DNA from: Nitrospirota bacterium
Lineage (GTDB): Bacteria > Nitrospirota > UBA9217
Direction of reading: 5' to 3'
NCBI GenBank assembly: GCA_963741205.1
Contig: CAVUHW010000049.1
Span: 1-15,540, forward strand
Length of the DNA: 15,540 nucleotides
Numbering within the stretch: position 1 is the stretch's first letter; every line of letters starts with the position of its first letter. Under the pieces are notes generated by a model, which worked only from the letters and a program-made list of their open reading frames with translations, did not search any database and was not told the DNA's origin. Of this stretch, positions 3,649 through 15,408 are shown piece after piece. Made by a program: the position numbers and the translations under genes.

Positions 3649-5622
3649 ATGAACGAAACCACGAGAAGGAACTTTTTGAAGCTGGCTGCCGGGGCAACTG
3701 CCTACACGTTGGGAGGAGGGATTATGGCCGCCGATGCGAAGGAAAAGAACAGTTCTGCCGATCTGATCATCACGAACGGGCGCATAGCAACGATGGACCC
3801 TCGAAAGCCGGCGGCAACGGCGGTCGCTATAAAGGACGGCGTCTTTCTGGCCGTAGGCGCTTATGACGAGGCAATAGCTCATAAGGGAGCACAGACGCGG
3901 GTGATCGATGCCGGCGGACGGACGATCATTCCCGGTCTCAACGATTCGCATATGCATGTGATCCGCGGCGGTCTCAGTTACAATGCTGAGCTGCGTTGGG
4001 ACGGCGTTCCCTCCCTCGCCGACGGCTTGCGGATGCTGAAAGAGCAGGCGCAACGCACTCCTCCCGGCCAATGGGTCCGGGTCATCGGCGGCTGGAGCGA
4101 ATTTCAGTTCGCCGAGCGCCGCATGCCCACGCTCGAGGAAATTAACGCCGTCTCCCCCGATACGCCGGTTTTTGTCCTGCACCTCTATTGCCGCGGAATG
4201 TTGAACAAGGCCGCGCTGCGGGCCTGCGGCTATACGAAAGACACGCCGAATCCGCCCTGCCGGTGAAATCCAGCGCGACGCAAACGGCAACCCCACCGGG
4301 CTTCTCATCGCCCGTCCCAATGCCGGCATTCTTTACGCCACCGTCGGCAAGCAGCCGAAGCTGCCGCCCGAACATCAGATGAATTCTTCGCGCCACTTCA
4401 TGCGCGAGTTGAATCGCCTTGGCCTCACCAGCCTGGTGGATGCGGGCGGCGGATCGCAAATCTACCCGGATGACTACGCGATCATTGAGGAACTGCACAA
4501 GCGGGGTGAAATGACCGTGCGCATGGCCTACAACATTTTCACGCAAAAACCCAAAGAGGAGAAAGAGGATTTCCTGCGCTGCATGAAGCTGACCGCGCCC
4601 GGCAAGGGTGACGATTTCTATCGCTGCAACGGCGCTGGAGAAATGCTGGTTTATTCGGCGGCGGATTTCGAAGATTTCCTGGAACCCCGGCCCGACCTCC
4701 CGTCCAACCTGGAGAAGGACCTGAAAGAGGTCGTTTCGCTGTTGGCCGCCAATAAATGGCCGTTCCGCATTCACGCGACCTATGACGAAAGCATCTCCCG
4801 CATGTTGAACGTGTTCGAAGAGGTGAACCGCGAAATCCCCTTCAAAGGAACAAATTGGTTCTTCGATCATTGCGAAACCATCTCCGACCGCAGCCTCGAA
4901 CGCGTCAAAGCGTTGGGAGGCGGCATTGCCATCCAGGACCGCATGGCCTTCCAGGGCGAGTATTTCCTGGACCGTTATGGGAAGCAGGCGGCGGAGCGGA
5001 CTCCTCCGGTCCGAAAAATGCTCGAGCTTGGCATTCCCGTGGGGGCGGGCACCGATGCAACCCGCGTGTCCAGCTATAACCCCTGGCTTTCCCTTTACTG
5101 GCTGGTTGCCGGGAAAACCATCGGCGGCGCCACGTTGTATTCCGAAGCAAACCGTCTGAGCCGGGAGGAGGCATTGAAGCTCTATACCCAGGGCAGCAGT
5201 TGGTTTTCGGGTGAAAGCGGCAAGAAAGGGGCAATCGCCGTCGGCCAACTGGCGGATGTCACCGCGCTCACCGAAGATTACTTCTCCGTGCCGGAAGAGA
5301 AAATCAAGGGAATCGAGTCCGTCCTTACCATTGTTGGCGGGAAGATTGTTTACGGTGCCAGGAATTTCAGGGCCTTGACCCGGCTCCGCTGCCCGTGCTG
5401 CCGGAATGGTCACCCATAAAGGTTTATGGCGGGTATGGGGCGCCATTGGACATTCGCAAAGCCGCTCGCGCCGGCGTCCCGGTCCCCCAGCACCAGCATT
5501 CCGCCGAGTGCCACTCGCACGGCTGTCTCCATGCTGCCCACCAGCTCCAGGCCGGCATCAAAGCCGCGGCTCCCCGTTACAGCGACTTCTGGGGCTTGGG
5601 CTGCGACTGCTTCGCCTTCTAA
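3649..5622 (+). CDS. YtcJ-like amidohydrolase (Amidohydro_3) with Tat signal; frameshifts near 4258 and ~5380
   Basis: TTRRNFLK twin-arginine motif; IIPGLNDSHMH, FRIHATYDESI, FFDHCETI and GTDATRV; C-terminal FWGLGCDCFAF; ORFs 3649-4266, 4379-5419 and 5395-5622 join into one protein. Confidence 0.88.
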
Positions 5623-5686
5623 GAGAAAACTGCAACGGACACCTGTAGAACGGGGGGCTTTAGTTTTATTTGAGGGAGGAACCCAG

Positions 5687-6598
5687 ATGTCAGAAAACAG
5701 AAAGATCAGGAAAGTGTTCAAAAGCAAGCCGACGATCGAAGGAGCAGGCGTTCATCTCAGACGGGTTTTCGGAAACAGCGAGGTCCCACTCTTCGACCCG
5801 TTCCTGATGCTCGACGATTTTCGCAACACCGATCCCTATCAATACATCAAGGGTTTCCCCTGGCACCCCCACCGCGGCATCGAGACGATCACCTACGTCT
5901 TCAGGGCGACGTCGAGCACGGAGACAGCATGGGGAACAAGGGCGTCATCACCTCGGGCGACATGCAGTGGATGACCGCGGGGAGCGGCATCATCCACCAG
6001 GAAATGCCCAAGGGAGACGACGAAGGCGTCATGGAAGGTTTTCAGCTCTGGGCCAACCTTCCGCGGTCGCGCAAGATGATGGACCCCCGCTACCGCGATA
6101 TCAAAAGCTCGCAGGTGCCGGAGGTGGTGACGAAGAGCGGCGCGAAGGTCAAGGTCATCTGCGGGACCGTGGAGGGAAAGAACGGGCCCGGTCACGGACA
6201 TCGTCATCGATCCCGAATATCTCGACGTCACGGTCCCGGCCCTCTCCGAGTTCGTCCACAAGACGACGCGCGGCCACACGGTCTTCGCCTACGTGATCGG
6301 GGGAAAAGGCGTCTTCTGCAACGAAAAGAACCCCTTTGCCTACGACGCCCTGGGCGAGAACTATTTCGACATGGAGCGCGATCCCTACATCCACAACGGG
6401 ACGGCGGTCCTCTTCGGCGACGGCGACCAGGTGACGGTCTCGGCGCAGGGCGAACCGGTGCGCTTCCTGCTCATATCAGGCAAGCCCATAGGCGAGCCCG
6501 TGGCCTGGTACGGCCCGATCGTGATGAACACCGAGGAAGAGCTGCATCATGCGTTCGAAGAGTATCGGGACGGGACCTTTATAAAGGCCCCACGATGA
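5687..6598 (+). CDS. Pirin family protein; frameshifts near 5900 and 6185
   Basis: EGAGV, DPFLMLDDF, GFPWHPHRGIETITY, QWMTAGSGIIHQEMP, FQLWANLP and PIGEPVAWYGPIVMNT spread over three frames; RBS GGAGG. Confidence 0.92.
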
Positions 6599-6753
6599 AA
6601 ACCGGACCTTCCCACAGCCGCCGCATTCTTGTCGTTTATTCTTCTGTTCTTGATATGTGTTTTAACGGCAAATAATCCAGTTCCTGTGGAGCACGATATA
6701 CAACCGGTCCGATTAAACAAAATCAGCTCAGGTGTGCTCATATCGTGTCTCCT

Positions 6754-9500: not shown

Positions 9501-10155
9501 ATGCCTAAACTCGTCGTTCGCAGTTTCGCCATCTCCTTGGACGGCTTCAGCGCCGCTCCCGGGCAGAGCCAGGAAGCGCCTTTCGGCAAGGACGGCCTCA
9601 AACTCATGAACTGGGTCTTTGCCACCAAGTTCTTCAACGCCATGTTCGGCCAGCCCGGAGGCGTCGAGGGCATCGACAACGACTTCATGGCCAAGTCGGA
9701 TGACAACATCGGCGCCAGCATCATGGGCCGGCATATGTTCGGCCCTCCGCCCGATGCCATAGGACAAAGCCGCCTGGAAGGGCTGGTGGGGCGAGAACCC
9801 GCCTTACCATCATCCCGTCTTCGTGCTGACCCATCGAAAAGAAGGCCCCCTTCGACATGGAAGGCGGCACCAGCTTCACGTTCGTGACTGACGGCATCGA
9901 GTCGGCCCTGAAGCAGGCCTTTGCCGCGGCCAAGGGCAAGGACGTGCGCCTCGGCCGGCGGCGCGGCCACGGTGCGCCAGTACCTGAAGGCGGGCCTGAT
10001 CGACGAACTGCATCTGGTGCAGGTGCCCCTCTTGATGGGCCAAGGCGAGCGCATCTTCGAAGGACCTGGGCGGCGTGGAAAGCATCTACGAATGCGTCGA
10101 ATTCACGCCTTCCAAGGCGGTGTCCCACCTCCGCATCGTCAAGAAAGCCAAGTAG
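9501..10155 (+). CDS. Dihydrofolate reductase-like / RibD C-terminal domain protein; several frameshifts
   Basis: ISLDGF, IMGRHMFGP, GWWGENPPYHHPVFVLTH, FTFVTDGIESAL, GGAATVRQYLKAGLIDELHL; TAG at 10153-10155. Confidence 0.88.
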
Positions 10156-10172
10156 GTCGCCAGCCCGGGAGC

Positions 10173-10200
10173 GGCCCTGGATTCAGGGGCCATTGTTATT
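10173..10200 (+). terminator. Possible intrinsic terminator after the DHFR-like gene
   Basis: GGCCCTG-GATT-CAGGGGCC hairpin followed by a weakly T-rich tail (ATTGTTATT). Confidence 0.3.
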
Positions 10201-10441
10201 CATACCTTTCAGTATCCTGATCAATGGACATACGAAGCTCACTATCGTCGCTAAAAAGTACTTTGAAAGATACGGTGAAAGGGACGAACAAAAAAGTATT
10301 TTCGTGCGGCTTGTGGCATTCATAGCAGTTGAACTGCATGGGCCCGTTCTCCGGCCTGTCGATCTTTATCGCACGCCGGATCGTTTTTTCGTCTGGCTGG
10401 AAATGGGTGACGTCGATGGTCTCGCAATAGATAATAAGCAA
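10196..10441 (-). pseudogene. Possible remnant of a c-type cytochrome gene (single CxxCH)
   Basis: Short ORF containing ENGPMQFNCYECHKPH; no signal peptide or clear RBS. Confidence 0.3.
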
Positions 10442-10728
10442 TTGATATACCGAGTAATAATTTATCTGATGATGACATCGGGTCCGAGAGGTTATCAGGG
10501 GCTTCGCGGGATTCGTCCATGATCCCGGAGGTTGCTATATTCAAAAGTACAGAAACGATATCCCCTAAGAAGTCGGAGAATCATCCTGTCAACAAAGTAG
10601 CTATCACTAACAGTTAGCGTTGGGATTTGATGAATGAAAAGTCTTGAATGGCATAAACAGCACGAGTAATAGAACTACGGAACGCATCATTTTCAATTCC
10701 CCTTGACATAAGTTTATTCATCGATTCA

Positions 10729-11937
10729 TTATTCTTCCAGAAGGCTGCCCATCAACTCCATGATATCGGTGATTCGTATCTGTTTATCATGACCCAGCAT
10801 CGCTTCATTAACCTGGGCATAACAGGCGGGACAGCTCAAAATAAGCCTGTCCGCTTTCTTTGCGACGGCCTCATCGATCGTCAGCCTTCCCATCGCATTT
10901 GCGTTCTCGGCAAAGACCTTTCTTGCAGCGCCGCCCGCTCCGCAGCACCGGGAAGAGACGCCGTGGCTCGCGAACTCAAGCAGCTTGACCCCGGGAATGC
11001 TCCTGAGTACGGCCCTCGGCTCTTCGATCACGCCCACGCCCCTGCTCAGGTAGCAGGGATCATGATAAATCAGACGTTCCTGCAATTGCTTTTTGATCTT
11101 CAGTTTCCCGTTCTTCAGCGCCTCGACAACGAACTGCGTGATGTGCCTTATCTTGAACGGGAGTTCCTTGCCGTAAAACAGCGGCCAGTCGTGCGACATG
11201 ATGTTAACGCAGCAGGGACAGGAGCAGAGAAGCACCTTTACATGCTTTGCCTTGTAGGCGCTGACTAGCCTCTTGGTCAAGTCTTCGAGCATATCGTGTT
11301 GTCCCGTGATAAAAAGAGGGAATCCGCAGCATACCTCCTCCTCGGCGGAAAGCATCGTGAAAGGCTCGCCGATCGCGTTCAGAACCTGGACGTCTCCTCT
11401 CACCATGGGCTGAGCGGAGTAGGCGCCGGTACACCCTGCATAGTAGGCGATATCCGCGGTTTCGGCGAGCTTCGTTTTTTCCGGAAGCCACAGGCTGAAA
11501 CGCTCAGCAGCGGGTTTGTCATAGGGGTTTCCCGTTTCCCCGATCATGCCCGGTGTTTTGGCCTGCCCGCCGATGGGACCCAGCCCACGTTTGACCATTT
11601 CCTTTCTCATCATGGGCCAGAGCCTCTGCGTAAAGATGCCGACGGTGCAGTTTTGACCGCAGGCCCCGCACGTGGTGCATTCGAAGACAGCCTTGGTGAA
11701 CTCTTCGAGCAGCTTACGGTCGATTGCCCGCGGCCCGAAAAGCTTCGCTTTGAGTCCTTCGGTTGCGCGAATGAACTCCTTGAAGGTCCGTATCTTCTCC
11801 GGCGGTGAAATCGCGGGCCTTCCGGTAACGTCCTGTACGGGACAATGCTTGAGACACTCGCCACATTGTGTGCACGCATCCAGCTCAAGGAGCTGTTGCG
11901 ATGAGAGATTTCCGGTAAAACAATCCTTATTTTTCAT
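10729..11937 (-). CDS. HdrD/GlpC-like Fe-S oxidoreductase (two 4Fe-4S motifs plus two CCG domains)
   Basis: CTQCGECLKHCP and CTTCGACGQNC; YYAGCT..VCCGFP..CPCC; YHDPCYL..RCCGAGG..CPAC. Confidence 0.9.
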   Translation of the reverse strand: MKNKDCFTGNLSSQQLLELDACTQCGECLKHCPVQDVTGRPAISPPEKIRTFKEFIRATEGLKAKLFGPRAIDRKLLEEFTKAVFECTTCGACGQNCTVGIFTQRLWPMMRKEMVKRGLGPIGGQAKTPGMIGETGNPYDKPAAERFSLWLPEKTKLAETADIAYYAGCTGAYSAQPMVRGDVQVLNAIGEPFTMLSAEEEVCCGFPLFITGQHDMLEDLTKRLVSAYKAKHVKVLLCSCPCCVNIMSHDWPLFYGKELPFKIRHITQFVVEALKNGKLKIKKQLQERLIYHDPCYLSRGVGVIEEPRAVLRSIPGVKLLEFASHGVSSRCCGAGGAARKVFAENANAMGRLTIDEAVAKKADRLILSCPACYAQVNEAMLGHDKQIRITDIMELMGSLLEE

Positions 11938-12008
11938 GCCTCATCCATTTCAATACTTTCGCTGTCCCCCCCGGCCGGTACAATTAGGTCACGGCTACAC
12001 GTCTCACC

Positions 12009-12278
12009 TCACGTTCTCCTTCGAACAACCAGCCCTGAAGCAAGGTCGTTGGCTATTCCATAATAAACATTCGAGCCTTCTCTTCTCGTCCTGAGAATAC
12101 GCTCCATGCGCATGAGAGTCAGATGCTGGGACGCATTCGCCTTTGGAACTCCGAGCTTCTCGGTAATCTCGCCCGAGGTAAGTTCGCCCGATCTCAGCAG
12201 GCAGAGTATCTCAAGCCGTTTGGGGTTGGAAAATATCTTGCAAAAATCGACGTGCAGCTTCAGTATCTCTTTTTTCAT
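12009..12278 (-). CDS. ArsR/SmtB-family regulator (HlyU/BigR-like), atypical C-terminus
   Basis: ATG overlaps the sqr stop (ATGA); FCKIFSNPKRLEILCLL, KANASQHLTLMR and RREGSNVYY. Confidence 0.85.
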   Translation of the reverse strand: MKKEILKLHVDFCKIFSNPKRLEILCLLRSGELTSGEITEKLGVPKANASQHLTLMRMERILRTRREGSNVYYGIANDLASGLVVRRRT

Positions 12279-13465
12279 GGCAGATTGCTGAGCCCCCTTT
12301 TCATCTTCCACAAGAAATATTTTTCGAACCCGACCTTCATCCATTTCGCCCAGACTGCCTTCTTCATGTAGGAGCTCTGCCTCGGCGGAAGCACGGGATA
12401 GGCCTTCATCAAGGCGGCCGTATTCCCCATGTCCATGAGGCAGACCACACCGAGCTCGTCCGCAGAGGGCGGGGTCTTGCCGGTAATATCCGAGGCGATG
12501 GTCGCGGCAGCGGTCTTCGCCATCTTGACCGTCATGAATCCGGTCTTGGGCACTCCCGTCGGCACCGGCGTCGGCTCCGGCGGCGCTATCGCCATCGCGA
12601 CACCGATCGCAAAAATATTTTTATGTTTCGTGTGGCGGTAATTTTTATCCACGGGATGAAGCCTCTCGGATTTCCGAGCGGCATGACGGCGGGCACGCCC
12701 TTAAAGGGCGGGGCGATCATGGCGAGCTTGAAGGGGATTTTATTCCCGTCCTTGAGCCGTATCTCTCCGGGAGCAACCTCCTGAATGGCCTGGCTCACGA
12801 GCGGCTTGATGTCCCTTTCAGCGAACTCATGCTCCATGAAGGTCTTGGAATTGCCGAGTCCGCCCACACCCATGTGACCGAGATAGGGCTCCGAAGTGAG
12901 ATAAAAGATGGGGACTTTATGCCGCATCTTCCGCCGCCGAAGTTCCGCGTCCATCTCGAAAGCAAGCTCATAGGAGGGGCCAAAGCAGCTCACCATCTGT
13001 GATGATCCGATGACTATCGGACCTGGATTTTCGAGAACTTGCTTCCATGTTTCCCCGGTCTTCATCGCATGGTCGAGCGTGAAGGTGCAGGACGTGTATC
13101 CTTTGTCCGGTCCGAGGCCGGGGATTTCGTCAAAGGAAAGATGAGGGCCGGTCGATATGACAAGATAATCATAGGGAAGTTCCCTCCCACGTGGAAGTGA
13201 TGACCTTCGATCCGGCGGCATCGATCTGCTTTGCAGCATCGTGGACAAATTCGATTCCCTTTCGGCCTCAGGATCTCGCTTACCTTAAGCGTGATGTCCT
13301 CAGGTTTGCGCCAGCCCATAATGAGCCATGGCAGGGACGGAAGGAACACGAACCGGTCGTCGTCACTCACGACAGTCACGTCGCCCTTGCCCCGAGCAGC
13401 CGTTTTAGCTCAAAAGCCGCCGTCAACCCTCCGAACGAACCCCCCAATACCACGATCCTTGACAT
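12275..13465 (-). CDS. sqr: Sulfide:quinone oxidoreductase (Aquifex-like, type I/IV); about four frameshifts (~13388, ~13255, ~13190, ~12652)
   Basis: RBS GGAGG; MSRIVVLGGSFGG FAD motif, FLPSLPW, YDYLVISTG, VSCFGPSYE, TSEPYLGHMGVGG, VPTGVPKTG, VCLMDMG and FEKYFLWK. Confidence 0.9.
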
Positions 13466-13515
13466 ATGTATCCTCCCCAGGATATTGCTACGCATGACTG
13501 ACTTCCAAGGAACGA

Positions 13516-13797
13516 CTAAAACATCCCTGCCACCTTCTCGCCGCCCGTGATAATATCCGTCAGTTTGTCATAGTCGATGACCTTGACCCGTTCATCCAGC
13601 TCGGAATCCTTGAGGCCCCGGAGCTTCTTGTCGTCATCGAGCACATACACCGCGCCGGGGAAAGCACCCAGCCGTTCCTTCTGCGAGAACAAGACCCCGT
13701 TTTGCAGCAGGACAAGATCGGCCCCGCCTTCCTTTGCGAGGGACAACCCGATTGATCCATCAGTCGTATCAGGTGCGCTCTTTATGATCACCACCAT
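13516..13797 (-). CDS. dsrH: DsrH/TusB-family sulfur relay subunit
   Basis: 93 aa; LVLLQNGV, YVLDDDKKLRGL and IDYDKLTD; third gene of a dsrEFH-like triplet. Confidence 0.8.
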   Translation of the reverse strand: MVVIIKSAPDTTDGSIGLSLAKEGGADLVLLQNGVLFSQKERLGAFPGAVYVLDDDKKLRGLKDSELDERVKVIDYDKLTDIITGGEKVAGMF

Positions 13798-13808
13798 GGT
13801 TATCTCCT

Positions 13809-14162
13809 TTAAAAGATCATCGTCGTATCGGTTTTGGCGATAATATCAGCGATCTCCGCTCCGCTTGAAATCGTTACACCCTCGATAAGACTGTCCTTGC
13901 TGACCTGTTCCCGTTTTAATGACGCGTCATCGGCATACACCGTCACGCCCATATCGATGCAGTCCTGAATACCCTCTGCTGCATTCAGATATTCGGTCTG
14001 TGACGCGTCCTGTCCCTTTCTGGCCGCATGCACTCCGCCGCCTAAGAGCAGCAGCTTGACCTCCATCTCGTCGGTCACCCCTCCGAGCGCATGGCGGAGC
14101 GCTTCCGAGGCATCGACCGTGCCGTAGGGAGGCCTTCGTAAGATTATGCTTATGCTTCCCAT
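13809..14162 (-). CDS. dsrF: DsrF/TusC-family sulfur relay subunit
   Basis: ILRRPPYGT, EALRHAL, GGVHAARKGQ and VYADDASLK (no Cys at the DsrE active position). Confidence 0.8.
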   Translation of the reverse strand: MGSISIILRRPPYGTVDASEALRHALGGVTDEMEVKLLLLGGGVHAARKGQDASQTEYLNAAEGIQDCIDMGVTVYADDASLKREQVSKDSLIEGVTISSGAEIADIIAKTDTTMIF

Positions 14163-14172
14163 GGTAGCCCCC

Positions 14173-14517
14173 TTATATGCCGAAATTGAGAAACACGGGT
14201 TTCGTCTTCACGACATTGTACAGTCCCTTGAGCGAACTCATCTCGCCACCCTCAATTGAATCGTCAGCCGCAAGACCGCGGCTTTTCATGCACCCTGTTC
14301 AGATGTCAACCTTGAGGCCTTTACCCACAAGATCCACCAGCATGGAGAGCGCCTGCGGGACCTGTCCCTTTACAATGGAGAAAACACCGTCACCCGAGGC
14401 AATAAGTCTCGCCTTGTGCCCTTTCTTCAAAGCAGATTCCGCCATCTTGAAGATCGTATGCGTATTCTCAAAGCTGTAAGGAGTCGTGGAAAGAAACATC
14501 ACAATCTCTTTTTGCAT
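14173..14517 (-). CDS. dsrE: DsrE/TusD-family selenoprotein, 114 aa, Sec73 in a UTGC (UxxC) motif
   Basis: RBS AAGGAGG (14529-14523); TTPYSFEN and SGDGV; in-frame TGA at 14301-14299 reads through as KVDI-U-TGCMKSRGLAADDSIEGGEMSSLKGLYNVVKTKPVFLNFGI to TAA 14175-14173, completing the DsrE fold; SECIS-like hairpin follows. Confidence 0.88.
14266..14283 (-). promoter_or_regulatory. Bacterial SECIS-like hairpin of dsrE
   Basis: mRNA AGCCGC-GGUCUU-GCGGCU; G-initiated loop begins 21 nt after the UGA. Confidence 0.8.
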
Positions 14518-14642
14518 ATCTGCCTCCTTTCTTTGATCGGCGAAGTGCCGGTTTCAGGAACGCTCATGAAACGTCAGTTCGGGATGGCAAGCAGTATCTG
14601 TTCGTGATAGATCGGGGAAGCGATCGGATCGATATTGTTTCC

Positions 14643-14720
14643 CTATAGATCGCTGTCACTCATGATCGCCGTCTTGAGCGCCTGCTGAGAAACCGTATCA
14701 TTCATGGCGATATGATACGG
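14643..14720 (-). pseudogene. Diverged duplicate of the 3' end of the upstream thioredoxin-like gene (or an in-frame read-through extension)
   Basis: IAMNDTVSQQALKTAIMSDSDL* versus IATKCNITYEALKAAIQSDSQ* immediately upstream. Confidence 0.55.
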
Positions 14721-14980
14721 TCATTGGCTGTCGCTCTGGATCGCTGCTTTCAATGCCTCATAAGTAATGTTGCATTTTGTCGCTATACACTTACCATTCA
14801 CGAACAACCGAGGGACAGGGCAGTTTGTCTTTAGGGCTGCCATATTCCTGAGAGGTTTTTTTGATCACGACAAGTTCAGCGTTGAATTCCTTTTCCGCCC
14901 ACCGGGCGGCTTCAAGAATTGGACATTCACCACTTTCCCATGGGATCATTGATATACAGAGTAATTATAGGTTTTTTCAT
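14721..14980 (-). CDS. Uncalled small thioredoxin-fold-like putative selenoprotein (~85 aa, Sec18); two single-base frameshifts
   Basis: RBS AAGGAG; ATG 14980 overlaps the ArsR stop (TGATG); MKKPIITLYINDPMGKW-TGA(14929-14927)-MS/LEAARWAEKEFNAELVVIKKTSQEYGSPKDKLPCPSVV/VNGKCIATKCNITYEALKAAIQSDSQ*; SECIS-like hairpin follows. Confidence 0.65.
14885..14920 (-). promoter_or_regulatory. Bacterial SECIS-like hairpin of the thioredoxin-like gene
   Basis: Upper stem CCGCCC-GGU-GGGCGG (14909-14895); lower stem AAUUCUU/AGGAAUU; loop starts 23 nt after the UGA. Confidence 0.62.
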
Positions 14981-15324
14981 CAGTCTGTCTCCTTTCGCCC
15001 GGATAGGATTCCTTTTTTCGTCACCGGACAGCAGGCCGGCGCGGGAATATCTTCTTCATATTCTTTTTTAAAAAGTTCGAGCAGGTCGGGGATCAGGGGT
15101 TCTTTAAGGAAGTAGCATTTGAGTCGTGCCATCAACGAAGAAGTCGATGATCTGGTCGACCGGAGAAGCGTCAAATGCTGGGAAACGTTCGGCTGGCTGA
15201 TGTCGAGTGTATCCTCGAAGTCGCTTACGCATTTAACACCCTGAGTAAGGTCTTCGAGAATCTTGATGCGTATTGGGTGGGCGATGATTCTTAGAAGATC
15301 GACTCTCTTCTCTAAGGGGATCAT
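14980..15324 (-). CDS. ArsR/SmtB-family regulator with C-terminal PACCP motif (compensating indels ~15160-15128)
   Basis: RBS GGAG before ATG 15324; LRIIAHPIRIKIL, CVSDF and ISQPNVSQHLTLLR; an alternative frame gives QIIDFFVDG before RLKCYFL. Confidence 0.88.
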   Translation of the reverse strand: MIPLEKRVDLLRIIAHPIRIKILEDLTQGVKCVSDFEDTLDISQPNVSQHLTLLRSTRSSTSSLMARLKCYFLKEPLIPDLLELFKKEYEEDIPAPACCPVTKKGILSGRKETD

Positions 15325-15360
15325 GATTGAGGTTTCTCCTTGTTTGAGCCGGCGAATCAA

Positions 15361-15408
15361 AACATATAAATATATGCGAATGTTATTATATTATTTTGTT
15401 AATGTCAA
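15361..15408 (-). promoter_or_regulatory. Sigma70 promoter with overlapping ArsR-type operator
   Basis: TTGACA (15408-15403), 17-nt spacer, TAACAT (15385-15380); palindromes AACAT-N14-ATGTT (15361-15384) and CATATA-AA-TATATG (15363-15376). Confidence 0.6.

Follow-up and report, generated by a model that had tools for sequence, protein, structure and literature searches.

Gene content and arrangement of the locus

The window analysed here is a 15,540-nucleotide stretch of contig CAVUHW010000049.1 from a Nitrospirota bacterium (host genome G000), and coordinates are positions in this window unless another contig is named. On its minus strand, from 15324 to 10729, lie eight genes in the same orientation, which Pfam assigns to the following families, 5′ to 3′: ArsR1, a thioredoxin (Trx)-fold protein, DsrE, DsrF, DsrH, SQR, ArsR2, and an HdrD-like protein. 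An earlier note on this DNA had described eight tightly spaced genes behind a single promoter/operator. This arrangement is borne out, but four of the genes have no intact frame and remnants of other genes lie between the Trx-fold gene and dsrE.

ArsR1 starts with an ATG at 15324 behind AAGGAG, not with a TTG at 15360, and all relatives align at this ATG. Its stop codon overlaps the start of the Trx-fold gene (TGATG, 14982–14978), and the SQR stop codon overlaps the ArsR2 start in the same manner (ATGA, 12278–12275). The remaining gaps are 10 nucleotides between dsrE and dsrF, 11 between dsrF and dsrH, 50 between dsrH and SQR, and 71 between ArsR2 and the HdrD-like gene. The promoter/operator region upstream of ArsR1 (15363–15408, minus strand) contains a sigma-70-like promoter (TTGACA at 15408–15403, a 17-nucleotide spacer, and TAACAT at 15385–15380) and a perfect 6-2-6 palindrome, CATATA-TT-TATATG, at 15376–15363. 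Of 15 upstream regions that were aligned, 13 retain the TTGA[CT]A box together with the AT-rich block that follows it, and we predict that the palindrome is likely to be the ArsR operator.

Two in-frame UGA codons are very probably read as selenocysteine

The Trx-like gene has an in-frame TGA at 14929–14927 (motif NDPMGKW-U) and dsrE has one at 14301–14299 (motif VDI-U-TGC). We scanned 21 sources for these codons, namely the window and the loci of 20 relatives; 18 of them contain a DsrE gene. The DsrE TGA stands at the same place in all 18, which fall into two subtypes, U-T-G-C and U-G-G-C, about 45% identical to each other. The TGA of the Trx-like gene is kept in every one of the 12 copies found in 10 loci.

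Each codon is followed by a hairpin resembling a selenocysteine insertion sequence (SECIS). The DsrE hairpin, AGCCGC-GGUCUU-GCGGCU (14266–14283, minus strand), lies 18 nucleotides downstream of the TGA and is supported as a consensus hairpin by 18 sequences: its sequence differs by subtype while the pairing is kept, with four of seven pairs changed on both sides. The loop of this hairpin in the window, GGUCUU, is presumably similar to that at the apex of the fdhF SECIS of E. coli. The hairpin of the Trx-like gene, CCGCCC-GGU-GGGCGG (14895–14909, minus strand), starts 20 nucleotides after the UGA, and folds of single sequences put a hairpin at the same place in relatives; the fold of the alignment gave three pairs only, with no compensatory change. 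Searched against Rfam at E ≤ 1, the window as a whole matched no family, and therefore no curated SECIS family covers either hairpin.

In a sample of 401 genomes of the phylum, 184 had a DsrE match at E ≤ 1e-10. We counted TGA codons by hand in the strongest 122 matches (E ≤ 4e-36) and found exactly one in 117 and none in five, four of the five coming from one other family. The two TGA-free cases that were fetched, G034 and G044, read L-C-G-T-C and lie in an ArsR-DsrE-DsrF-DsrH-SQR-like operon. A Cys paralogue of DsrE (CGTC) also adjoins the selenocysteine (Sec) gene in G018.

The host encodes SelA (453 bits, the gene being split), SelB (wing domain, 78 bits), and SelD (352 bits, with one TGA in selD itself), together with two tRNA genes with the anticodon TCA. 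The earlier note had seen both UGAs with their hairpins and had named the Sec machinery of the host as a check, and on both counts it was right. We consider it very probable that both UGAs are Sec codons. One of the two tRNA-Sec genes (contig C30 of the host, 27060–27152) lies near a TusA-family gene (26676–26876) and a weak DsrE-family match (26301–26507).

The probable Sec of the DsrE-like protein aligns with the reactive Cys of DsrE

The dsrE gene (14173–14517, minus strand) encodes a DsrE-like selenoprotein of 114 residues with Sec73 in a UxxC motif (Pfam DsrE, E = 3.7e-13). It is followed on the same strand by intact genes for a DsrF/TusC-like subunit of 117 residues (13809–14162; Pfam DsrE, E = 6e-16) and a DsrH/TusB-like subunit of 93 residues (13516–13797; Pfam DsrH, E = 1.2e-9). 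DsrE and DsrF score 50.1 and 59.1 bits on PF02635, both over the gathering score of 22.7, and DsrH scores 38.6 bits on PF04077, over the gathering score of 24.4.

A profile search of solved structures with DsrE gave E. coli YchN (1jx7) as the best match (E = 5.5e-8), with the CxxC of YchN on the UxxC motif, and in a weak profile match (E = 0.028) Sec73 aligns with Cys78 of Allochromatium DsrE (2hy5_A). A single-sequence search of the Protein Data Bank (PDB) was topped by designer pentatricopeptide repeat proteins, which we treated as spurious repeat matches, and the profile search was used instead. The AlphaFold model of DsrE (predicted local distance difference test score, pLDDT, 83) matches 3mc3, 1jx7, 2hy5_A, and 2d1p_A with template modelling (TM) scores of 0.81–0.83. 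It places Sec73 at a strand-to-helix turn, at the end of strand 69–73 and before helix 74–79. The alignment of Sec73 with the reactive Cys of DsrE supports this part of the interpretation in the earlier note. Public database entries for the protein are truncated at the UGA: of 282 matches, the best 120 are all 71–98 residues long and cover 61–63% of the query.

The core of the operon is conserved among relatives

Searching with the operon DNA gave matches in 22 of the 24 genomes of its family. The constant core is ArsR1-DsrE(Sec)-DsrF-DsrH-SQR, and SQR lies at most 3 kb from DsrE(Sec)FH in 21 of 23 loci, with an SQR fragment in one more. Conserved synteny, another check named by the earlier note, was found for the order ArsR-(Trx)-DsrEFH-SQR-(ArsR2) but not for the HdrD-like gene, which lies outside this core and is absent from all 20 relatives' loci first fetched. 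By these sequence comparisons the operon is real and conserved across the phylum.

TauE genes are present in operons of relatives. In many relatives (L030, L038, L042, L043, L045, L072, and L093) ArsR2 is followed by genes for a DrsE_2 protein, for an MMPL/RND-type transporter, and for a LolA-like protein or domain, which may form an export module tied to the operon. The operons with a Cys form of DsrE, L066 (G034:C304, 2772–5928) and L067 (G044:C276), comprise ArsR, DsrE(CGTC), DsrF, one or two DsrH-like genes, and an SQR-like gene that is only 29% identical to the SQR of the window type. Two loci of relatives differ in other ways. G009 has a second ArsR-TsoC(Sec) pair followed by a methyltransferase gene (L034, G009:C227, 9585–10867), and G011 has a lone SQR gene adjoining a MerB-like gene and a gene for a Cys-rich small domain (L036, G011:C4, 7368–8653).

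The Trx-fold selenoprotein (~14723–14980, minus strand) probably falls, by its NDPMGKW-U motif, in the TsoC (NEPxGxxU) family. Trx-like proteins of relatives score 45.2 and 78 bits on the TsoC model NF045708 (cut-off 45). The window copy is frameshifted, and a hidden Markov model search of the host genome with NF045708 gave no match; as there was none in the controls either, this negative carries little weight. The model of the G003 orthologue (pLDDT 90) has a thioredoxin fold, and U occupies the opening turn of helix 1.

Downstream of this gene the window holds, on the same strand, a 3′ fragment of a second Trx-like gene (14641–14684; blastn to Trx 3′ ends, 86% for G019 and 78% for G003) and the last part only of a multihaem cytochrome c gene (~14575–14639, blastn). 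The segment 14639–14500 matches the cytochrome 3′ end and the DsrE start of G024 (86%) and G003 (80%) by blastn, and both of these genomes have the full multihaem cytochrome gene with its CxxCH motifs. Near-identical environmental contigs diverge beyond 14636 and 14711, and loose ends lie at 14550, 14636, and 14711. Among relatives, ArsR1 and DsrE have no gene between them in G001, G004, G016, G022, and G036; the slot holds Trx alone in five genomes, Trx with TauE in two and Trx with the cytochrome in two, and contains the extra DsrE paralogue in G018. Junctions of a deletion mosaic, which the earlier note had said would speak against its proposal, are therefore seen in part, in that this slot contains gene remnants in the window and varies among relatives.

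Outside the operon, the contig also carries an intact MsrA-MsrB fusion gene (1326–2408), a cytochrome P460 gene (8516–9199), and a beta-lactamase-family fragment (52–402).

SQR and the two ArsR-family regulators

The SQR gene (12275–13465, minus strand) has a broken frame and is assigned to the Aquifex/Acidithiobacillus type through the match of its orthologues to 3hyv; that of G024 matches 3hyv with E = 4e-99 over residues 4–391. Both catalytic cysteines, in the motifs VSCFGP and VVCLMDMG, are retained, and correcting the frame of the window copy recovers them there as well.

ArsR1 (14980–15324, minus strand; Pfam HTH_5, E = 2e-9) belongs to the ArsR/SmtB repressors and scores 54.8 bits on NCBIfam HTH_metalloreg against a cut-off of 55. 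Its cysteines include Cys32, which lies in helix alpha-3, and a Cys-Cys pair at the C terminus. The spacing of Cys32 and Cys97 could be taken to mimic the Cys42-Cys108 pair of BigR/SqrR; this candidate was ruled out, as the alignment puts the BigR Cys elsewhere.

ArsR2 (12009–12278, minus strand; Pfam HTH_5, E = 1e-11) is a second ArsR/SmtB regulator, with 75.2 bits on HTH_metalloreg. It is nearest to HlyU, BigR, and SqrR, the G003 orthologue matching HlyU with E = 1.6e-12. The alpha-2 Cys is present in the window and in four of nine relatives compared. An alpha-5 Cys occurs in eight of the nine, about 7–10 residues before the HlyU position, and alpha-5 of the window copy is out of frame.

A predicted relay for SQR-derived sulfane sulfur

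We put at roughly 0.6 the probability that an ArsR-controlled operon here couples a membrane SQR to a DsrEFH-like sulfur carrier with Sec as its active residue, the frame breaks in this copy being mostly errors. On this best reading the operon would be a repressor-controlled relay for SQR-derived sulfane sulfur that feeds TusA/DsrC-type chemistry. SQR would oxidise sulfide and pass the electrons to quinone, and the sulfane sulfur so made would be taken up on Sec73 of DsrE, with Cys76 of the UxxC motif as the resolving residue. From there it would either go to acceptors of the TusA/DsrC type, whose genes lie in other parts of the genome, or be reduced. Where present, the TsoC-like protein and the HdrD-like CCG protein would act as redox partners that reopen Se-S or S-S bonds. 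ArsR1 would bind the palindrome over the promoter, and ArsR2 would head the downstream module, which in relatives consists of DrsE_2, the MMPL transporter, and the LolA-like protein.

Several observations count for such a relay: Sec on Cys78 of DsrE, the DsrE-like fold, the adjacent DsrF and DsrH genes, the SQR cysteines, the linkage to SQR, the TauE neighbours, and the presence in the host, outside the window, of dsrAB, two dsrC-like genes, and six TusA genes. These last genes also mean that the module is not self-contained, as the earlier note had supposed it to be.

Other points weigh against this interpretation. DsrE matched no NCBIfam family, DsrF scores 35.7 bits on TIGR03010 (cut-off 94.15) and DsrH 36.8 bits on TIGR03011 (cut-off 49.2); with no model for DsrE, and with DsrF and DsrH under the TusC and TusB cut-offs, the proteins are therefore not a canonical DsrEFH. 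It is the adjacency of the three genes that predicts a DsrEFH-like complex here, and by analogy this Sec-DsrEFH would work like DsrEFH though it is not a canonical member. The structures nearest to this SQR are usually described as facing the periplasm and DsrEFH is cytoplasmic, so a direct hand-off of sulfur is not assured. In the alignment ArsR1 has no counterpart to the Cys that the persulfide sensors BigR and SqrR carry in alpha-2, and its Cys32 and C-terminal Cys-Cys look more like a metalloid site. Finally, the steps of the relay are predicted from genes and models.

The cysteines of ArsR1 bring in a different function, namely that the operon responds to or handles metalloids or selenium (arsenite, thioarsenic species, selenide, or tellurite), with ArsR1 as a metalloid sensor and Sec binding a soft metal or metalloid. 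The methyltransferase gene behind the second ArsR-TsoC pair of G009 and the MerB-like gene adjoining SQR in G011 would fit such a role, and a review places the TsoC family among selenoprotein neighbourhoods whose Sec may bind metals (PMC13188914). The conserved core, however, is SQR with a sulfur-carrier fold, the second regulator is nearest to HlyU, BigR, and SqrR, the TauE and DrsE_2 neighbours point to sulfur, and the core of the loci examined contains no ars, arsM-equivalog, or mer gene. We therefore regard a metalloid or selenium function as unlikely.

The HdrD-like gene is a recurrent neighbour outside the core

The last gene (10729–11937, minus strand) is intact and encodes an HdrD/GlpC-like iron-sulfur protein of 402 residues (Pfam CCG, E = 2e-22; Fer4_8, E = 1e-11) with two [4Fe-4S] motifs and two CCG domains (CCG 79.3 bits in two stretches; Fer4_8 45.5 bits). 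It stays under every NCBIfam cut-off, the best score being 178 bits for TfrB (cut-off 385), with 93.7 bits for DsrK (cut-off 400).

Matches at E ≤ 1e-120 occur in 68 of the 401 phylum genomes, and in three of these, G179, G185, and G385, from two other families, the gene stands beside the SQR module. In G179 and G185 it lies between the MMPL and LolA-like genes. The G179 copy (L072, G179:C21, 8846–10048) has Sec in a C-P-U-C motif of the CCG domain, as does that of G385 (L094, G385:C5, 7515–8717), which directly follows SQR in a genome without a DsrE match; the copy in the window has Cys in place of this Sec. The G179 and G385 copies may represent a Sec form of a GlpC/HdrD-like protein. In a tree the window copy groups with those of G397, G179, and G385 (support 93/90, under the star threshold of the tool) and lies outside a 100/100 clade of its own family, apart from the resident copy of its own genus.

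Homologues from the same genus, 72–78% identical, sit in an unrelated cluster, which consists of genes for RACo, DUF6951, an unknown protein of 265–281 residues, the HdrD-like protein, a pyridoxal phosphate enzyme, and a thiamine pyrophosphate enzyme. This resident cluster is conserved in L053 (G014:C22, 2706–9730), L050 (G003:C91), and L095 (G293:C33), and the resident copy of the host itself (C12:85540–86739) is frameshifted.

Being absent from the 20 loci and yet recurrent in three genomes, the HdrD-like gene is, by these gene neighbourhoods, not a core feature of the operon, though its link to it is more than chance adjacency. The place given to it in the earlier note, as the endpoint of the relay, is weakened by the first observation and keeps some ground from the second.

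CCG-domain proteins such as HdrD and DsrK reduce disulfides or trisulfides, and the operon might accordingly run in the reductive direction. Quinol- or HdrD-driven reduction would then convert polysulfide or protein-bound sulfane sulfur to sulfide, the selenols of the Sec-UxxC DsrE and of TsoC serving as reductants; sulfur respiration, disproportionation, or detoxification would be the process served. In favour of this direction, the UxxC and CxxC motifs are of a redox kind and not simply carrier sites, a Sec-containing HdrD-like gene lies inside the module of some relatives, and the host has dsrAB and dsrC. Against this, SQRs of this type are known as sulfide oxidisers, both from the titles of their PDB entries and from their physiology, and a cross-check of the two sets of matches found the HdrD-like gene beside the module in only three of about 50 genomes with both a strong HdrD-like and a DsrE(Sec) match. 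A reductive operon thus seems improbable to us, and the oxidative relay from SQR to DsrE remains the preferred interpretation.

Frame breaks in this copy of the operon

Indels were judged against intact orthologues and called window-specific when common to no relative. At least ten one-base window-specific indels are spread over ArsR1, the Trx-like gene, SQR, and ArsR2. ArsR1 has three, at ~15157, 15127, and 15008, including a compensating pair; in the Trx-like gene two insertions, at ~14918 and 14804, break the frame after the Sec codon; and SQR has four, at ~13383, 13262, 13191, and 12653, which split the gene over three frames. In ArsR2 the 3′ end does not keep the frame seen in relatives, and this affects the C-terminal helix, which in relatives bears a conserved Cys. 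No indel is present in the 2.2 kb of DsrE, DsrF, DsrH, and HdrD.

We lean towards assembly (consensus) errors rather than decay as the source of the one-base indels, because other genes of the host are broken as well and because the frame-corrected SQR is under unchanged purifying selection. The essential rpoC (C13:85702–89702) is split over three frames, and selA (C26:85393–86485) and dsrA (C8:197604–198750) are each split over two. On the contig of the window, the Pirin gene is split into two overlapping frames (5426–6675) and a RibD_C-like gene is broken (9501–10522). Frame-corrected SQR contains no stop codon; its dN/dS is 0.046, where 17 orthologues have a median of 0.041, and its dN of 0.072 is not raised over the median of 0.084 between orthologue pairs. 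Environmental contigs 95–99% alike (X1–X4) lack the extra base at ~13191–13192 and have an extra base near 13394; the two SQR indels that they cover are thus both absent from them, those near 13262 and 12653 being uncovered. A search of sequencing runs listed no RNA data set with the sequence and found no run with half of the words (best share 0.11). A per-contig statistic of open reading frame coverage was dropped as too blunt for measuring assembly errors.

Alternatively, this copy may truly be decaying, with SQR, the Trx-like gene, and the two regulators disabled by frameshifts, the cytochrome lost by deletion, and only DsrEFH and HdrD left intact. This would concern the state of the copy and not the function of the operon. 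The distribution of the indels argues for it. A sample of 24 conserved query proteins from relatives (8,680 residues, some matching the same gene) gave seven frame changes outside the contig, or about one per 3.7 kb; the window indels are about eight times denser and spare DsrE, DsrF, DsrH, and HdrD. The indels cluster in the other four genes, a pattern that uniform random error does not predict. The gene remnants between Trx and DsrE and the loose ends there in near-identical contigs point the same way: genuine deletions seem to have left the cytochrome stub and the Trx fragment, and the loss of the cytochrome gene probably is real. Single defects in relatives, a frameshifted Trx in G010 and a TAG in the SQR of G012, show that such decay does happen. 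In the G012 gene (L037, G012:C363, 6548–7735) the TAG stands at residue 145 and replaces a conserved Glu. Decay is thus a serious contender, but with rpoC, selA, and dsrA broken likewise elsewhere in the assembly, and two further genes on the window's own contig, and with an SQR that shows no sign of relaxed constraint, we think it the less probable account. If the frame breaks are mostly consensus errors, the organism probably has a working operon.

Relation to known systems

The DsrEFH of Allochromatium vinosum (2hy5) and E. coli TusBCD (2d1p) share with the present system three adjacent genes of the DsrE, DsrF, and DsrH families and a closely similar fold (the TM scores given above). They differ from it in that Sec stands here in a UxxC motif, identity is 17–18%, and the genes lie with SQR and ArsR instead of with dsrAB or tRNA-thiolation genes. 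YchN, the best solved-structure sequence match, has its CxxC exactly at the UxxC but with Cys in place of Sec. Its PDB entry is titled hypothetical protein, and we take YchN to stand without DsrF and DsrH partners.

The sulfide-detoxification operons controlled by SqrR, BigR, CstR, or HlyU, among them cst and bigR, likewise combine an ArsR-family regulator, SQR, a sulfurtransferase, and a TauE-type protein, the last being found here in relatives. The present operon has no persulfide dioxygenase and its carriers are selenoproteins; moreover, ArsR1 is without the sensor Cys pair of SqrR, BigR, and HlyU, and the C-terminal Cys of ArsR2 comes earlier in helix 5 than that of HlyU.

Both selenoprotein families are in print. 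A DsrE-like UxxC selenoprotein family (PF02635) has been listed since 2005 (Zhang, Fomenko and Gladyshev; PMC1088965), and such a protein is also listed for Desulfovibrio vulgaris (PMC1794560) and in a 2026 review (PMC13188914). As described there, the 2005 family resembles ours in the PF02635 domain, the UxxC motif, and a bacterial SECIS downstream; its listing gives neither function nor partners, whereas here DsrF, DsrH, and SQR accompany it in a conserved operon. TsoC is the NEPxGxxU selenoprotein of the Tso "three selenoprotein operon" (Haft and Tolstoy 2025, as given in PMC13188914). The Trx-like protein shares with it the N-D/E-P-x-G-x-x-U motif at the start of helix 1 and a small Trx fold, but belongs to a DsrEFH-SQR operon. 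A search of the host for TsoB gave nothing over the cut-off (best match 111 bits, cut-off 805), and ArsR1 and ArsR2 reach 24.8 and 27.4 bits on TsoR (cut-off 115).

A link from SQR sulfane sulfur to DsrC has been suggested for DsrEFH type II, which occurs in cable bacteria and sulfate reducers (Plum-Jensen et al. 2026, PMC13293266). By its description it is, like ours, a non-canonical DsrEFH in dsrAB carriers. Its residue is a Cys, Cys67, and its genes adjoin tusA and yeeE; the description reports no synteny with SQR or ArsR, and the word selenocysteine is absent from the main text of that paper.

The earlier note had not recognised the combination as a described system. This does not hold for the two selenoprotein families, but for the operon itself it does: the literature searched, by title and abstract, contained no description of a Sec-DsrEFH-SQR operon. 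New here are the TsoC-like partner, the operons with a Cys form of DsrE, the count over the phylum, and the HdrD-like neighbour, which recurs and in some cases contains Sec.

Implications for sulfur metabolism in the phylum

The copy in the window is one more, poorly assembled instance of the operon, to which it adds the TsoC-like partner and the recurrent HdrD-like neighbour. For a sulfur relay it would be chemically unusual to have a selenol, with a resolving Cys beside it, in place of the thiol that carries the persulfide. Since database entries are cut at the UGA, surveys of sulfur oxidation based on DsrEFH may miss the Sec-type DsrE.

A wider and more speculative proposal, which we hold tentatively and rather doubt, is that a Se-dependent cytoplasmic sulfane-sulfur relay, made up of TsoC-like(Sec), DsrE(Sec)FH, and in some lineages the Sec-HdrD-like protein, links SQR to the Dsr machinery in the dsrAB carriers of the phylum. 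It would provide a hidden route of sulfide oxidation or disproportionation in organisms filed as sulfate reducers, one that surveys would have missed because gene callers cut DsrE at the UGA and the complex then looks incomplete. The operon bears on whether dsrAB carriers that are classed as sulfate reducers are able to oxidise sulfide as well, a question raised by the work on DsrEFH type II (PMC13293266).

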